IMG/VR virus record: IMGVR_UViG_3300034025_000003
Reading direction: 5' to 3' (one strand)
DNA from: a virus
DNA length: 48,740 nt
Positions 21,147 through 44,506 of this stretch are shown here, piece after piece (the first letter of the stretch is position 1; each line of letters opens with the position of its first letter). The notes below the pieces were generated by a model. It was not told the origin of the DNA, searched no databases, and saw only the letters and a list, made by a program, of their open reading frames with translations. Both the position numbers and the translations under genes were made by a program.

Positions 21147-21175
21147 ATTATACCATGTTTAATTCACTTTGTCAA
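21147..21175 (-). promoter_or_regulatory. Consensus sigma70-type promoter
   Basis: The minus strand reads TCTTGACA-AAGTGAATTAAACATGG-TATAAT, a 17-nt spacer with both hexamers perfect. Confidence 0.7.
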
Positions 21176-21219: not shown

Positions 21220-23049
21220 TCAATGCGTTTCTGCCCACGTGAGTCCGACTTTGGAGTCGCATTCAATCGGGATAGAGTAACCGAAGCTACGTCCGGCTGC
21301 GATAAATGACTCAGAACACAAAACCTTAAATGCCTCGATGTGGTCGTTAAGGACATCTGTTTGCCATTCATCATGGATATCTCCAACTTTAATTGCGTCG
21401 ATGCGTCCACGTCTTTTTCCTTCGTCAACAAAGATCATTGCTTGCTTCATAATACGACTCTCGTCGCCTTGCAGAAGATACGGAATAACCATGTGATCTG
21501 ACGGAACAAGCACTCGTGATCCATCGCAAAGAGTTATTCTACCAGTTCGAGTTAGCTCTTCCTTAAGCCGATTGATAAGCTTAGGTAGTCCCGGAACCTG
21601 CTCAAAGAATAGCAACTTTGCAGCCTTAGCTTCCTTAAGTGACACCTTAGCTTCGTTAGAAATCTTAGCGTCACCAGCACCCATCAACGTTGCGTACGTG
21701 ATGGTCTTTGTCAACGCTCGTGTCGACAGACCCATGTTCTTTTGATTTGCAGAATGAGGGTCTTCAGAAAGAATAGCTTCTGTGAATTTGTCGTCTTTGA
21801 GATAATCAGCAAGAATTCTTAATTGAATACCTTTAGCGTCAACGCCAACGAGAGACCGGTTGCGAACATCCCGACAAGTCCAAACATCCCGAGCTTCGTA
21901 TGTGAAGGCTCCGCTCCTTCCGAGTAACGGCTTCGCATCCTTATCAACTCTAACGGCGGGTATATTAGCAGTGTTAGGCTTATCGTGACGATAACGAAGT
22001 GAGCCAGCAAGCCATAAGTTTCCATGAAGTCTTCCATCCTTATCAATCAAATCAAGCCAGTTACTAACCATGTTACCACGAGCGTTGATAGCAATCCACT
22101 CTGCAAGCTTTTTAACAGCTTCGTTTGGAACTTCTTCAATAAACTCTTTAAGGCTGGGACTTAAATCTCCCTTTTTAGTCGGCTTAGGACTTCCTTTTGG
22201 TGTGAACTCTCGAGGTTTCCAACCGAGTTCAAGCAGTTTTTCAACTCGTTGTTTTGGGCTTCCAAGGTTGAACTCAATCCAATCAAGTGCTTCATATCCT
22301 CCGTCGTCGGTGTGACGAAGCTCTGGGTACTCAGTAAGATGTCGTTCATAGTTCGCACAGTAATCGCCATTAGCCTTGCGTGCTTTCGCAAAGCGTTTGA
22401 CAACCTGTAGGACGGGAGGCCAGTGCTCATAGATTTCATCTTTTAACTTTCGTTCGAGTTCACGAATTTCTGTGTAAAGTTCGTAGGCTCGGGGTACGTC
22501 AATCTGGAAACCGTCGAGTCTTTGTCTGCGGATAATGGCCCACGCTCGGTGTTCAAGCTCACACGATCGATCACTGAAACCAACAGCTCGCATGCGATCA
22601 GAAAGGCGAAGCCATAGACGAACGTTAACCCGGCAATCGTTAAGACAGTAACGAACCATGTCATCAGACAAGCAACTCCAATCACTAAACTCGGTCTTTG
22701 GGAATCCTAGTCGACCTCCCCACGCTTCGAGACTATGGCCGCCAGCCAACCCGGGAGAATACAGCATAGAAAGAATAAAGGTGTCAATAACACGACTAAC
22801 AGGAATCCGAGTACCAACCAAACGGTTGAGAACAGGGACGTCGAATGAGAGTAAGTTATGTCCGACGAAGACACATTTTCTGGTGAGTTGGAGATCAATC
22901 CACTCCCTTATTGTTTTTGGATCGGTGAACGTTAGTTCTTGACCGGTAACGAGGTTGATCGCACACATGCACCAGATAACCTTGGGATCAAGGCCGTCTG
23001 TTTCTATGTCAATTAACCAATATTCTTCGGTGGGTTTATTTAGATAAAT
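21220..23049 (-). CDS. DNA polymerase, family A (T7 gp5-like) with a 3'-5' exonuclease domain; non-canonical start
   Basis: Exo I LIDIETDGL, Exo II GHNLLSFDVPVL, Exo III YCLNDCRV, pol motif A VDAKGIQLRILA, motif B RALTKTITYATLMGAG, motif C IHDEWQ. The first ATG (22968) lies downstream of Exo I. The frame is open up to 23052, and ATT at 23049 sits 9 nt after a GGAGG. Confidence 0.85.
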   Translation of the reverse strand: MYLNKPTEEYWLIDIETDGLDPKVIWCMCAINLVTGQELTFTDPKTIREWIDLQLTRKCVFVGHNLLSFDVPVLNRLVGTRIPVSRVIDTFILSMLYSPGLAGGHSLEAWGGRLGFPKTEFSDWSCLSDDMVRYCLNDCRVNVRLWLRLSDRMRAVGFSDRSCELEHRAWAIIRRQRLDGFQIDVPRAYELYTEIRELERKLKDEIYEHWPPVLQVVKRFAKARKANGDYCANYERHLTEYPELRHTDDGGYEALDWIEFNLGSPKQRVEKLLELGWKPREFTPKGSPKPTKKGDLSPSLKEFIEEVPNEAVKKLAEWIAINARGNMVSNWLDLIDKDGRLHGNLWLAGSLRYRHDKPNTANIPAVRVDKDAKPLLGRSGAFTYEARDVWTCRDVRNRSLVGVDAKGIQLRILADYLKDDKFTEAILSEDPHSANQKNMGLSTRALTKTITYATLMGAGDAKISNEAKVSLKEAKAAKLLFFEQVPGLPKLINRLKEELTRTGRITLCDGSRVLVPSDHMVIPYLLQGDESRIMKQAMIFVDEGKRRGRIDAIKVGDIHDEWQTDVLNDHIEAFKVLCSESFIAAGRSFGYSIPIECDSKVGLTWAETH

Positions 23050-23052
23050 GGT

Positions 23053-23223
23053 TCAAAGCCTCCAATTTTCGATCACAAGAAGCTCTGGCTTTGGGGCGCG
23101 CCTGCTACACATGTAAGTGCGTGTGATAGTGTTGTAGGAATCTACATGCCAGTCAAGATCAAGACTGGCGAACTTACCCCTATAAACTTCAATAGTTTCA
23201 AGTCCATCCGAATTGATCGTCAC
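23053..23223 (-). CDS. WRL-tail small protein A (…PELLVIENWRL)
   Basis: GTG at 23223 is preceded by AGGAG. The ORF ends in VIENWRL-TGA and overlaps the end of the primase-helicase gene by 26 nt. The track start is at 23274. Confidence 0.5.
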   Translation of the reverse strand: MTINSDGLETIEVYRGKFASLDLDWHVDSYNTITRTYMCSRRAPKPELLVIENWRL

Positions 23224-24835
23224 GTTTTGTTTCTCCTGCTTCGAAAGCGATAACTTCCTCGGGATCGAGTTCAACCATGCGTCCTGTCTTACCGTTGTAG
23301 TGCAAATACGAAGCTGGTCCTGTCATACCACTGAACCTATTCTTTTCGACGACGGTTTTGGTGACGTTGCGTCGATAAGGATCAGTTGCTGTCTTGTCAC
23401 GTTCCAGTCGAATAACGATGTTTGCTACTTGCTCAACACCGGCTGTGCCTCGCACGAGTCCTGCTCGATTTTGATGGATAACGCAGATAAGAGCAATGTT
23501 TAGCTCCATGCAAAGTGTTTTAAGCTTGGTACTAATCTCGTCTAGCTGTTTACGCTCATCACCGGATTGATCGGAAACAATGATAGAAAGATGATCCACA
23601 ACAACATACTTACATCCAAGAGCGTGCATGTGACGAACCTTATCAAGGACCGCGTCGACGGTGTTCGACCCAAAATGGTCCCAAATAACAACCCGATCGG
23701 TATTGATAACAGCGTCATAAGCTGCCCGGAGCTCGTCAGTCGTCCGCTCAGTGTCAGGTAGATGATAGGGCTTTGAGTTATGAACAGACATAAGTCCCAA
23801 GGCTGTATCGTGGTTCGGCTCTTCCAGATGAAGGAAGCCAACCCCGTAACCCTTCTCAATAAGCTCTTTGTTGACAAGCAAAGAGTGCTCGATTTCTTTG
23901 ATGTAAGAAGTCTTACCAACGCCTGTTGGTGCATGAACGAGGACAAATTCTGAAAGTCGAAGACCATACGTAAGCTTATTTGTTTCTTCAAACGGTAGCG
24001 GAACAGTGAAGTGGTTCGGACGATTAATGATCGTGTCCCACATTTGCGTACCGAGTATCAAGCCATCAGGCTGATAAGGAACAGCCTTCCACCACTCGTT
24101 TACGAACTGTTTTCCACGACCGTTTAGAAGATATTCATTCGCATCCTTAAACTCTCGAAGAGTTAGTATCTTAGCTTTTCCGGGTTTGAACAGTCCAGCA
24201 ACTTTGATGGCTGCTTCTTGTCCCGGAAAATGCTTTTCCCCTGTCAACGGATTAATCTTAGCTTCGTCACGATCAAAACAAACGATGATGGATTCAAAGC
24301 TATTCAGATACTCGTAGTTGCGTTTACAATCTTCGATCGCAGAGGACGCGCCATGAACGCTTACGGCAGGGAAGGGGGAGATTTGAAACGCTGCCATTGC
24401 ATCGTCCTGTCCTTCCAAGATAGTAATAGCTTTTGCGGAACCTGGGCTAAATGTGTGTTGTCCGAACAGATCAAGGTCTCGTCCTTGTCCCTCGTAGAGA
24501 AACTTTTTACCTGTTTTTCGTATCTTGTTTCCGACGTGAACGCCGTTAGCGAAGACAGGATAGCGAGCTTCAACATCAGACGATGATAGATCAACGCTAA
24601 CGCCGAACCGCGAGATTGTTTCTCGATCAATGCCTCGTTCCTTGAACGCATGGAAAACGTTTGTAAGCGGAGCAAACTCCGAAGATAGTTTCTTAACTGG
24701 AATCTCCTCCTCTTGTCGGCCATTCGATGGCGGAAACTTTTTATCACACGAAAAACATTTTCCCCAGCCTTTCTCATTGATGCTATAAGCATCACTAGAG
24801 ATACCACAGGGACAAGCTTGATGAGTTGTTTTCAA
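23198..24835 (-). CDS. Bifunctional primase-helicase (T7 gp4-like)
   Basis: N-terminal Zn finger (CPCG...CFSC), a TOPRIM region, a DnaB-like Walker A (HAPTGVGKTS) and Walker B (VVVDHLS). TTG start. Confidence 0.9.
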   Translation of the reverse strand: MKTTHQACPCGISSDAYSINEKGWGKCFSCDKKFPPSNGRQEEEIPVKKLSSEFAPLTNVFHAFKERGIDRETISRFGVSVDLSSSDVEARYPVFANGVHVGNKIRKTGKKFLYEGQGRDLDLFGQHTFSPGSAKAITILEGQDDAMAAFQISPFPAVSVHGASSAIEDCKRNYEYLNSFESIIVCFDRDEAKINPLTGEKHFPGQEAAIKVAGLFKPGKAKILTLREFKDANEYLLNGRGKQFVNEWWKAVPYQPDGLILGTQMWDTIINRPNHFTVPLPFEETNKLTYGLRLSEFVLVHAPTGVGKTSYIKEIEHSLLVNKELIEKGYGVGFLHLEEPNHDTALGLMSVHNSKPYHLPDTERTTDELRAAYDAVINTDRVVIWDHFGSNTVDAVLDKVRHMHALGCKYVVVDHLSIIVSDQSGDERKQLDEISTKLKTLCMELNIALICVIHQNRAGLVRGTAGVEQVANIVIRLERDKTATDPYRRNVTKTVVEKNRFSGMTGPASYLHYNGKTGRMVELDPEEVIAFEAGETKRDDQFGWT

Positions 24836-24893: not shown

Positions 24894-24922
24894 ATTATAC
24901 ACAGTTTTGTAGAGGTTGTCAA
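24894..24922 (-). promoter_or_regulatory. Consensus sigma70-type promoter upstream of the primase-helicase gene
   Basis: The minus strand reads GCTTGACA-ACCTCTACAAAACTGTG-TATAAT, a 17-nt spacer with a TGn extended -10. Confidence 0.75.
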
Positions 24923-25511: not shown

Positions 25512-25760
25512 TTATCCTTCTATTTCTGGTTCAGAGGAACATTCAATGACTAGACGTGCGCCACACGCTAGAAGAGAGGCATGAGGGGAATAGACAAGAG
25601 TAGCCCCATCAGGAAGCCTAACACGGTTCCCGTATATAGGCCGTCCGCTAAACCCTCGTTGTATGCGGATTGGAGGTTCGGGTCGTTCGGCACGAATGTT
25701 TCTCCGGATGATGTGTTGATTAACGTGGACGTACCACTTACGATTGTCCATTATAACCAT
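25512..25760 (-). CDS. Hypothetical protein (start uncertain)
   Basis: The ORF contains WYVHVNQHIIRRNIRAERPEPPIRIQRG...LLACGARLVIE. I could not assign a function. Confidence 0.5.
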   Translation of the reverse strand: MVIMDNRKWYVHVNQHIIRRNIRAERPEPPIRIQRGFSGRPIYGNRVRLPDGATLVYSPHASLLACGARLVIECSSEPEIEG

Positions 25761-25965
25761 TTCCGTAAGTTTCGTCAAGCCCTAACTCACGTTCGAGTGG
25801 ACGCAATTCACGAAGAGCTGCCTCACGGAATCCTTTTGGTCGCGAGAAGTCTTTAACATTTGCTCGCAGTGTACGAATCTTTTCACAGGCTGCGTGGTAA
25901 GACGTCTCCTGCGCCAATCGCTGAAATTCAGAAGGCGAGCGAGTAAAGAAACGGTCAGTCATCAT
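25738..25965 (-). CDS. Hypothetical protein
   Basis: ATG at 25965 overlaps the TGA of WRL protein C (CTATGATG). Confidence 0.5.
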   Translation of the reverse strand: MMTDRFFTRSPSEFQRLAQETSYHAACEKIRTLRANVKDFSRPKGFREAALRELRPLERELGLDETYGNGYNGQS

Positions 25966-26204: not shown

Positions 26205-26443
26205 AGTCTCCACTCTTCGATTGTAGACGGGCCTTTGTTAATGATGTTCCCGTATTTATGCGACCAATGAGGATGAGGGGTACCATCTATTTTTACGATC
26301 AGAAAATCATTAAACTCGTTAATGTCAACAACAACGCAAGGAATTCCATCGTAACTATTAAGAAAAATTTCCTGTGATCTCTTTATTGCTCTCGAAGGAT
26401 TATTTTCGAACTCTATCTCAGCGTCCCAATCAATTGATTTCAT
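26201..26443 (-). CDS. WRL-tail small protein D (…GPSTIEEWRL)
   Basis: ATG at 26443 overlaps the end of the ATP-grasp gene. MKSIDWDAEIEF...; ends in IEEWRL-TGA. Confidence 0.65.
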   Translation of the reverse strand: MKSIDWDAEIEFENNPSRAIKRSQEIFLNSYDGIPCVVVDINEFNDFLIVKIDGTPHPHWSHKYGNIINKGPSTIEEWRL

Positions 26444-27182
26444 TTGAGATAGCCTGAAACGCTTGGGCGTAATCTTGGACTGTCTGACCCTCGAGACCGC
26501 ACGCTGTGTTAACTTCGAGAACATAGGCCATCTGTCGACGATCATTCCAAATAACGTCCACCCCGCCAAAATCAAGGCCAAGCGAATCAACAGCGGCAAT
26601 TGAATGCTCAAGGACACAATTAGGAGCGTCAACGCCATCGCGAGCGAATACAAAACCGTTAGCGTGATTACGTATCTGCCAGTTTGGGTCATCTACATCA
26701 AGCCTTCTCGCCTTGCGCTGCACAGCCACAACTCGACCTCGGACAACGTGTACTCGGTATTCGTCTTGCTTCGGTACGTAGCGGACGTAGAGCGGCGCGT
26801 TAACAAGCTCTTGTGCGCTATTCGCAACAACGATGCCAACACCGCTATGGCCGTTAAGAACAGTACGACAGAATACAGGATACGCTTCAGCAGGAATTTC
26901 TTCTTGCAACTGCCAAAAATCAGGGACATTTACGCCAGCCTCCTGCATTCTGTTGAATGCCCAAAGTTTGTTTGCGGCAGTAGCTACCGCATCAGAAGTA
27001 TTGAGGACTATTCCGCCTCGACCGTAAGGTACAGACGAACCCCAATTGATAATCAGATCATCGCGACGAGGAATGAACGTCGAACCTTGCAGTCGCAAAA
27101 CGCGTCCACGTGGGAGAGCGCCCGCAAGGGCTCGTGCTGATCGTGAACCTTGCTTATACGGATAGACGCGAAAACGAGGCAC
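26430..27182 (-). CDS. ATP-grasp ligase (RimK-like, phage type)
   Basis: NKLWAFNRMQEAGVNVPDF, GHSGVGIVV, EYRVHVVRGRVVAVQRK, WQIRNHANGFVF and LGLDFGGVDVIW...YVLEVNTACGL are typical ATP-grasp blocks. The GTG start overlaps the TAG of E. Confidence 0.85.
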   Translation of the reverse strand: MPRFRVYPYKQGSRSARALAGALPRGRVLRLQGSTFIPRRDDLIINWGSSVPYGRGGIVLNTSDAVATAANKLWAFNRMQEAGVNVPDFWQLQEEIPAEAYPVFCRTVLNGHSGVGIVVANSAQELVNAPLYVRYVPKQDEYRVHVVRGRVVAVQRKARRLDVDDPNWQIRNHANGFVFARDGVDAPNCVLEHSIAAVDSLGLDFGGVDVIWNDRRQMAYVLEVNTACGLEGQTVQDYAQAFQAISNEIN

Positions 27183-27406
27183 TACAATCTCCAATATTCA
27201 ATGACGTGACTGATTCTCTCAACAGAGCCAGTATTCCATTCTCCTCCGTTACCACTGACGGAGGTGTCTCCGACACGAGTCCAAGGCGATCGATCCCAAA
27301 TTACTTGGAAGTATCCCTTACGTCTAGCAATTGCTTCGACAGTGCCGACACAACCGTGAAAGTCTGTTCCATTAGTGCATCGAATACGATCACCTACTTG
27401 AATCAC
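27182..27406 (-). CDS. WRL-tail small protein E (…SHVIEYWRL), SH3-like N-terminus
   Basis: GTG at 27406 overlaps the TGA of F. (M)IQVGDRIRC...; ends in IEYWRL-TAG. Confidence 0.65.
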   Translation of the reverse strand: MIQVGDRIRCTNGTDFHGCVGTVEAIARRKGYFQVIWDRSPWTRVGDTSVSGNGGEWNTGSVERISHVIEYWRL

Positions 27407-33702: not shown

Positions 33703-33926
33703 CAAAGTCTCCAATCTTCTATTTCAATTTCGATCGGGAAGATAAGAGTCCTGCAACCATCCTGTGATTTGCCTGATTTGTTCACAGTGATGAAGCACGG
33801 CTGTGCGCTAGTCTTAGCTCGACCCTCGTAAACTGCCGGGAAACGATGATCGAGACTGCCGAGTCCGACTAGCTTCCAAGTTCTGTTTGATTGGTCAAGA
33901 GCTTCGAGTGGATACCGTTGGCTCAC
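33702..33926 (-). CDS. WRL-tail small protein I (…IEIEDWRL)
   Basis: GTG at 33926 overlaps the TGA of J, the same junction geometry as F/E. It ends in GAA GAT TGG AGA CTT TGA. Confidence 0.6.
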   Translation of the reverse strand: MSQRYPLEALDQSNRTWKLVGLGSLDHRFPAVYEGRAKTSAQPCFITVNKSGKSQDGCRTLIFPIEIEIEDWRL

Positions 33927-42732: not shown

Positions 42733-44277
42733 ATGACTATTGAAGAAATCAGGGCAGCAGCGGAGGCGGACCTCGAAACTTTTATCCGTCTCGTTGCCCC
42801 TTACCAAGTTATTGGGGGTGTGCATTCAGATTGGTGTCGTTGGACTACTTCAAAGAAGTCAGGCGATCACCAACTGACACTTCTCCCTCGAGATCACGGT
42901 AAAAGCAGATACATCGCTTTTAAAGTTGCTTGGTACATCGTTAAGCGACCCGACATTCGAATTCTTTACATTAGTTCGACTTCAGGTCTTGCTGAAAAAC
43001 AGCTAGGTTTCATTAAACAAATTATCACGTCCAACATCGTTCGTCGATATTGGCCTGAACTTCTTCACGTAGATGAAGGTAAGAGAGAGAAGTGGACGAA
43101 CACTGAAATCTCTGTCGATCATCCGATAAGAAAGCTCGAGGGTATTCGTGATCCAACCGTGTTTACAGGTGGGTTAACAACGAACCTTGTCGGCATGCAC
43201 TGTGACGTAGCAGTCTTGGACGACGTTGTAACAGGAGACAATGCCTATACGCAAGAAGGAAGAGATCGCGTACGTACCCAATACAGTCTCTTGTCTTCTA
43301 TCGAAGGTGGCGAAGCTGAAGAATGGGTCGTAGGAACTCGTTATCATCCGAAGGATTTGTACAGTGAAATGCTCTCTATGCAAGAGGACGTTTACGACGA
43401 CCGAGGGGAGGTGATCGATTCTACCGAGATTTATCAAACGTTTGAACGTGCGGTTGAAGACTCGGGAGACGGGAACGGAGAATTTCTCTGGCCTCGTCAG
43501 CAACGCAACGATGGCAAGTGGTTCGGTTTCGACGCTCAGATTCTAGCCCGAAAGCGTGGCAAGTATCTCGATCGAACTGCTTTCTACGCTCAGTACTACA
43601 ACAATCCTAATTCATCAGAGAACGGTGGAATAGACCGCTCGAAGTTTCAGTACTACGAACCGATGCATCTTCGTCGGGAAGGTGAAACTTGGTACATGAA
43701 AGATCGAAAGCTAAATGTTTACGCTTCTGTCGACTTCGCCTACAGTATCGGAAAGAGAAGCGATTATACGGCAATTGCTGTTATCGGAGTTGACAGAGAA
43801 CGAAATATCTACGTTCTCGAGATTGACCGATTTCGAACAGATAGGATTAGTGACTACTTTGAACACATTCGGAATCTCTACGTAAAGTGGGGCTTCCGAA
43901 AGCTTGGCGCAGAAGTTACGGCAGCTCAGAAAGCTATCGTTAAAGAACTTAAAGAAGGCTACTTCAAACCCCACGGCCTCTACCTATCAGTTGAAGAATT
44001 AGCGCCGACTAGCAAGTCTGGTTCTAAGCAAGAGCGGATGGCGGCAGTTCTTGAACCTCGTTACGACAACATGGCTGTCTGGCACTACAGAGGCGGCAAC
44101 TGTCAAACGTTAGAGGACGAACTTTCTTTAGCGCATCCACCGCACGACGATTGCATGGATAGTCTTTCGTGCGCTATCAGCATCAGCGTCCCGCCTGTCG
44201 GTATGATGGGAAAAGATAGTGGACGTCATCTTCGACTTATACCGAATTCCCGATTTGGAGGACTAGGCTCTGCCTAA
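42733..44277 (+). CDS. terL: Terminase large subunit
   Basis: Walker A-like LLPRDHGKS, Walker B VAVLDDVV, and nuclease acidic residues (VDFAYS, DYTAIAV, HDDCMDS). Confidence 0.9.
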   Translation: MTIEEIRAAAEADLETFIRLVAPYQVIGGVHSDWCRWTTSKKSGDHQLTLLPRDHGKSRYIAFKVAWYIVKRPDIRILYISSTSGLAEKQLGFIKQIITSNIVRRYWPELLHVDEGKREKWTNTEISVDHPIRKLEGIRDPTVFTGGLTTNLVGMHCDVAVLDDVVTGDNAYTQEGRDRVRTQYSLLSSIEGGEAEEWVVGTRYHPKDLYSEMLSMQEDVYDDRGEVIDSTEIYQTFERAVEDSGDGNGEFLWPRQQRNDGKWFGFDAQILARKRGKYLDRTAFYAQYYNNPNSSENGGIDRSKFQYYEPMHLRREGETWYMKDRKLNVYASVDFAYSIGKRSDYTAIAVIGVDRERNIYVLEIDRFRTDRISDYFEHIRNLYVKWGFRKLGAEVTAAQKAIVKELKEGYFKPHGLYLSVEELAPTSKSGSKQERMAAVLEPRYDNMAVWHYRGGNCQTLEDELSLAHPPHDDCMDSLSCAISISVPPVGMMGKDSGRHLRLIPNSRFGGLGSA

Positions 44278-44293
44278 AGTAACTTACAGAACG

Positions 44294-44506
44294 ATGGCAA
44301 TCAATCGTCCGCTTGTGCTAAGGCGTGGCATTGAAGGCGAAATCGAAAGCAATCAAATGAACGCTTATCTAAACGAGTGGGTAGTTTTTAAGCTTCCGCT
44401 GTCTGAAGGATCGTTCGGTGAACTACGAATGCCGATAGAAGATGCTTTGGAGCAAGGTCTAGTGATCGCTGCCGATAAGCTCGAATCTTATGAGGACGAT
44501 CAATAG
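44294..44506 (+). CDS. Hypothetical protein
   Basis: 70-aa ORF between the terminase and portal genes. Confidence 0.5.
   Translation: MAINRPLVLRRGIEGEIESNQMNAYLNEWVVFKLPLSEGSFGELRMPIEDALEQGLVIAADKLESYEDDQ

Follow-up and report, generated by a model that had tools for sequence, protein, structure and literature searches.

An AUU start codon proposed for a phage DNA polymerase in a clade with weak replisome starts

Escherichia coli infC, which encodes IF3, and pcnB, which encodes poly(A) polymerase I, are initiated at AUU (PMC5499595; 10.1101/063800), and AUU, AUC, AUA, and CUG initiate at 1-2% of AUG in this bacterium (10.1101/063800). A non-AUG start does not always imply low output, and the output from AUU changes with temperature and growth phase (PMC5499595). 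Deinococcus dnaA has an ATC start, as shown by N-terminal proteomics (PMC2830850), which has been proposed to link replication with translation. The repA gene of IncFIB plasmids starts at CTG behind a GGAGG ribosome binding site, and the replicon is unharmed when this CTG is changed to ATG (PMC11983097). In a literature search of incomplete coverage we came across no phage DNA polymerase, primase, or pair of them described with such a start. Among phage genes, T4 gene 26 may be an AUU case, and T7 genes 4 and 5 have AUG starts.

The window analysed here (the whole stretch of DNA, 48,740 nucleotides) comes from biocrust metagenomes and represents a podophage-like genome of 48.7 kb, with a terminase, a major head protein, a holin, an endolysin, and a minus-strand replication block. 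It has no close cultured relative (polymerase identity reaches 36% at best and there is no match at the DNA level), and scanning viral contigs with a single sequence gave nothing. Within the replication block, the frame at 21220–23049 (minus strand) is predicted from profiles and fold to encode a 609-aa family-A DNA polymerase with a 3'-5' exonuclease. The polymerase domain matches PF00476 at 93.6 bits (cut-off 34.3), the protein matches phrog_17 (E 1e-99), and the best structural matches of its model are to T7 gp5 (E 5e-31, TM about 0.7); by these sequence and model comparisons it is a T7 gp5-like family-A enzyme with a proofreading domain. The likeness to T7 gp5/gp4 extends to an N-terminal Exo I D-x-E motif and to an adjacent T7 gp4-like primase-helicase (Toprim and DnaB_C domains, phrog_239) at 23198–24835 on the minus strand. 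The polymerase is only about 22% identical to T7 gp5 and has an additional M-Y-L-x-x-P N-terminal arm, and its replication unit, unlike that of T7, is headed by a host-type consensus promoter; no ORF of T7-RNA-polymerase size was seen on the early strand of the window.

The reading that we consider probable is an AUU start for this polymerase, in a clade where selection keeps the replisome starts weak and where a strong promoter is combined with throttled translation. By analogy, the mechanism would be of a kind already known from infC, pcnB, Deinococcus dnaA, and FIB repA. As in infC and pcnB, a near-cognate AUU/AUC start would lower translation and the codon class is kept across relatives; those are host genes, however, whereas the window genes encode a phage replicative polymerase and helicase, and unlike infC and pcnB the phage clade exchanges TTG and ACG with ATT and ATC. 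The infC codon serves an IF3 autoregulatory loop. Deinococcus dnaA is likewise a core replication gene with a conserved near-cognate start that is mis-annotated in databases, but it encodes a chromosomal initiator for which ATC is the sole codon and has been proved by experiment, whereas here several codons serve phage enzymes and the evidence is comparative. IncFIB repA resembles the polymerase gene as a replication protein of a mobile element with a weak start, a strong Shine-Dalgarno (SD) sequence, and annotations that use a downstream canonical codon; it is a plasmid initiator whose one start codon, CTG, is conserved, unlike the varied codons here. Near-cognate initiation has so far been described for a few genes of bacteria and plasmids, and the comparison would add the core replisome of a phage clade to them.

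The Exo I motif and the ATT codon at 23049

The first ATG, GTG, or TTG in the polymerase frame is at 22968, codon 28 counting from the ATT, and public gene calls give only the 582-aa product that begins there. The earlier note had placed the Exo I motif upstream of this codon in the same open frame, and re-inspection of the coordinates agrees: EEYWLIDIETDGL is encoded at 23028-22990, where D14 falls at 23010 and E16 at 23004. From 23052 the frame runs without interruption to a TAA stop at 21220 (609 codons from the ATT). As the note also described, it is closed upstream only by the TGA at 23055–23053, which ends the small ORF WRL-A and is in phase with the polymerase in the window. The minus-strand order is GGAGG (23063–23059), TGA, ACC, and ATT (23049–23047), so that the ATT sits 9 nt after the GGAGG, and both near-cognate codons listed previously, ATT 23049 and ATT 23013, are present.

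The polymerase contains the D-x-E motif only when it is initiated ahead of 22968. The predicted Exo I strand W-L-I-D14-I-E16-T-D-G-L (22990–23028, minus strand) contains the equivalents of T7 gp5 D5/E7; its W-L-I-D-I-E segment aligns with T7 gp5 residues 2-7 when a profile of close homologues is aligned to T7 gp5, the alignment starting at residue 2, and conservation of D14 and E16 is at least 90%. In T7 gp5, D5A/E7A substitutions lower exonuclease activity 10^6-fold (PMC8867116). Residues 10-17 and 25-32 of the modelled polymerase are confident β-strands (pLDDT about 90), and a start at Met28 (22968) would delete strand 1 with D14/E16 plus half of strand 2. Among the 120 best homologues, most have M-Y-L as their first residues and carry the Exo I Asp at residue 13-14; codons 1-27 are conserved among homologues, and ATT 23049 occupies the initiator-Met column of the alignment. 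By alignment and model, the codons upstream of 22968 are real protein.

The GGAGG at 23059–23063 is predicted to form an anti-SD duplex of -9.3 kcal/mol, versus -3.3 at Met 22968. Of the 520 near-cognate codons inside the large genes of the window, only 6 have an SD as strong as that of ATT 23049, and the strong SD at the ATT is therefore not attributed to chance. ATT 23013 was rejected as the start: it is without an SD (-1.0 kcal/mol), and its use would lose the conserved Y-L-x-x-P arm. From the alignment and the SD we assign the polymerase start codon to ATT 23049 with high confidence, and we infer that initiation occurs there, with the strong GGAGG positioning the AUU for fMet-tRNA and a full-length 609-aa polymerase (fMet-Tyr-Leu...) as the product.

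Several of the closest database homologues are truncated like the window's gene call and are without Exo I, and several primase homologues are without the zinc finger. Because gene callers truncate polymerases and primases in this way, surveys of phage PolA would wrongly score such enzymes as proofreading-deficient. Expressing the annotated polymerase would likewise be expected to give a crippled enzyme.

Start codons of the polymerase, the primase-helicase, and control genes

The start-codon tally rests on DNA from about 100 distinct homologous polymerase loci, a part of the full-length homologues. The window lies in a 16-member polymerase clade (support 100/100, 64-75% identity), and the comparison of the junction with related phages that the earlier note had called for found ATT, ATC, ACG, TTG, or ATG at the same codon. 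The polymerases of the clade start at ATT (four), ATC (five, two of them one position further up, in M-x-Y-L), ACG (two), TTG (four), and ATG (one), so that 15 of 16 are non-ATG and 11 are near-cognate. The ATG user, L186, fell outside the clade in a quick tree and in a polytomy in a careful tree, and was counted inside. At the start position Thr is always encoded by ACG and Leu always by TTG, against background shares inside genes of 22% of Thr and 8% of Leu codons, respectively; this invariance argues that the constraint is on likeness of the DNA to ATG and not on the residue. On the tree, which is partly unresolved, the start codon must have changed at least 10 times among 15 tips, and a single clade for the TTG users is rejected by the AU test (p 7e-7). 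Judged from these alignments, codon class is conserved in the clade and codon identity is not. In the wider family ATG is used by 48 of 99 polymerases, with CTG, ATC, and ATA starts scattered over more distant branches. ATG serves L186 and roughly half of the wider family, so that related phages can evidently live with a strong start.

The near-cognate starts are accompanied by stronger SD sequences, with a mean duplex of -8.6 kcal/mol (n=13) versus -5.2 for ATG starts (n=48); the Mann-Whitney p of about 3e-6 is overstated because the tips are related and thus not independent. The best explanation of this difference is that a stronger SD partly compensates for the weak start codon.

The primase-helicase shows the same avoidance of ATG. 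It starts in the window at a TTG with a weak SD (-3.9 kcal/mol), and among the 13 clade members compared the predicted starts are TTG (five), ATA (three), ATC (three), CTG (one), and GTG (one). None of the 13 has an SD-supported ATG start, seven have a near-cognate one, and in six there is no canonical codon ahead of the primase zinc finger. Six control genes were scored in the same clade, with starts called by hand: the exonuclease, endonuclease I, metallophosphoesterase, amidoligase, SSB, and a conserved gene of the amidoligase island (26430-27194). Their 64 starts include about 43 ATG and no near-cognate codon (Fisher p about 4e-10 when L186 is excluded, with tips that are not independent). 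In these genomes about two thirds of the control starts are ATG, whereas the two replisome genes together have one ATG in 29 starts. These hand-called comparisons demonstrate that the weak starts are specific to the replisome genes, with RNR intermediate at one ATT and one CTG among 10 starts. The clade therefore holds an internal control, in which two genes avoid ATG beside neighbours that use it, and the purpose of the weak starts can be tested by a one-base change.

Other annotations in the relatives and the window are affected by similar codons. The primase-helicases of L006 (2260-3904), L008 (4038), L010 (1358), and L184 (2654) are cut to 280-463 aa versus about 545 in public calls because of their CTG, ATA, or ATC starts, and the L006 annotation places a spurious gene on the opposite strand across the primase-helicase. 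Further probable near-cognate starts were seen in the RNR genes of L184 and L096 and, as ATT, in the L186 amidotransferase. A possible second near-cognate start in the window lies in the plus-strand ORF at 44267-44506, where a CTG with a GGAGG SD (-9.3) stands 8 codons before the called ATG 44294, which is without an SD.

Dosage and its alternatives

Three readings of the junction had been proposed in the earlier note: rare AUU initiation that limits polymerase dosage, termination-reinitiation coupling, and TGA read-through. The first is strongly supported by the homologue alignment and by the clade-wide use of ATT, ATC, ACG, and TTG at the same codon. The unit of primase-helicase, WRL-A, and polymerase is headed by a predicted promoter that matches the sigma-70 consensus perfectly (TTGACA-17-TATAAT, 24894–24922, minus strand); in eight clade members, the window among them, a 12/12 match stands 70-250 nt ahead of the primase zinc finger. 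Given the perfect host-type consensus, the host RNA polymerase probably transcribes the unit strongly, and the two replisome enzymes would be throttled at the level of translation, with their start codons held weak by selection. Helicase and polymerase would then be scarce or in a set ratio to neighbouring proteins; if E. coli values hold in the host, AUU efficiency would be roughly 1-2% of that of AUG. We consider it likely that the weak starts were selected for dosage, and the comparison suggests that they probably keep both enzymes scarce. Because FIB repA was unharmed by the change to ATG, conservation of a weak start does not by itself imply that excess protein is toxic.

Further consensus promoters flank the replisome unit on the minus strand at 21147-21175 (12/12) and 25750-25778 (11/12), and a terminator-like hairpin is present at 20786-20768.

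WRL-A (23053–23223, minus strand) is a 56-aa ORF with a GTG start at 23223 (SD -7.4), and its last codons carry the polymerase SD. Searches for a Pfam family, a PHROG family, or a significant phage match to WRL-A found none. The slot that it occupies between primase and polymerase is hypervariable: across all clade loci, every relative has its own small ORF there (45-85 aa), and these ORFs are unrelated to one another. This suggests frequent cassette exchange, which may also swap the polymerase SD and start codon.

It is possible, though we think it the less probable account, that ATT is the start but that output comes mainly from ribosomes that end the upstream ORF and re-initiate at the weak codon, so that polymerase output would follow that ORF. 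In most relatives the start is preceded at 3-15 nt by the upstream stop, whichever ORF is upstream, which makes re-initiation plausible. The same spacing is predicted by dense gene packing, which is general in the window genome. A modest hairpin predicted inside WRL-A hides the SD, and translation through WRL-A would open it, but the hairpin is unexceptional (z -0.64) and not conserved; single-sequence folds of 10 junctions gave no shared or exceptional RNA structure at the start. In the ATG user L186 there is no intervening ORF and the polymerase start overlaps the primase stop directly, an arrangement that fits limitation by coupling to a weakly started primase (n=1). The strong, well-spaced SD would nevertheless permit independent initiation, and ribosomes finishing the small upstream ORF may simply help by re-initiating.

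A nearly neutral origin of the weak starts, in which permissive host ribosomes or IF3, or a small need for the enzyme, let the codon drift among near-cognates, appears doubtful. It would accommodate the many different start codons in use, the sporadic near-cognate starts in the RNR (ATT, CTG) and amidotransferase (ATT) genes of relatives, and the tolerance of ATG by FIB repA (PMC11983097). ATG is one step from every codon seen, however, and a drifting start should often rest there, which is at odds with its rarity in the replisome genes beside its prevalence in the controls.

The weak starts may also act as a sensor of IF3 or host state and not only as a throttle, a role that we regard as unlikely but for which there is room because FIB repA tolerates ATG and AUU output varies with conditions. 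If so, both replisome enzymes would be under IF3-discriminated codons and the onset of replication would be tied to the translation-initiation state of the host (growth versus dormancy in a drying soil crust), or a phage factor might loosen start-codon selection during infection. The use of TTG by four relatives implies that sensing through IF3 is not obligatory.

Read-through of the TGA, which would yield a 667-aa fusion of WRL-A and polymerase as the main product, is hardly credible. The window TGA is in phase, and phase 0 stops occur in six relatives too. Against this, the upstream ORFs are not homologous, their stops fall in phase 0, 1, or 2 and are TGA or TAA (phase 1 or 2 in L009, L010, L006, L008, L015, and L185; TAA in four of those in phase), and among the 120 best homologues (lengths 335-1068 searched) there is no long polymerase fusion, the longest being 629 aa. 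Because upstream ORF, stop phase, and stop type all vary and no long fused homologue is found, we conclude that read-through is not the mechanism; it would also leave the conserved SD and the near-cognate codon in the Met column unexplained. Reading of TGA as Trp was rejected since relatives' stops vary in phase and type, and several TGAs of WRL ORFs overlap the start of the next gene in another frame. On these comparisons the WRL tail and the phase of its TGA are incidental features of the window genome, and the tail supplies the SD.

The remaining alternatives, namely an exonuclease-dead 582-aa enzyme started at Met 22968 as public gene callers report, an assembly error, or a frameshift from a TTG at 23056 that overlaps the TGA out of frame, are together very improbable given the conservation of codons 1-27 and the weak SDs of Met 22968 and TTG 23056 (-3.3 and -2.4). 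The earlier note had raised a base-call error at the junction; at the contig level, three biocrust runs yield Logan contigs (depth 19, 21, and 9; two may be the window's own source) that span it base for base with 0 differences and 0 gaps, which makes an error very unlikely, and an identical downstream polymerase protein is carried by eight contigs. TTG 23056, which the note did not mention, opens a probably incidental 6-codon mini-ORF (23036–23056, minus strand), and one base fewer after it would give the polymerase in frame. This frameshift was rejected because the TTG is without a usable SD and is not conserved; a comparable TTGA mini-ORF occurs in the sister L011 only, and most relatives have none.

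Small ORFs with recurrent C-terminal tails

Ten small minus-strand ORFs of the window end in [IV]-E-[DNEY]-W-R-L-stop, with stops at 33923, 33702, 33466, 28654, 27403, 27182, 26201, 25962, 24931, and 23053. Their Arg and Leu codons vary, which indicates that the tail is maintained at the protein level, and the tail often gives the next gene its SD and an xTGA overlap. In the portions of L005, L009, and L096 that were retrieved, no comparable tail family occurs. Other relatives possess, by sequence, genome-specific tail families of their own: six ORFs in L008 (3-2555) end in P-E-x-Y-E-E-W-F-[KR], two in L006 (146-633) end in V-x-E-E-D-W-S, and two in the sister L011 (496-1207) end in I-E-D-W-R-L.
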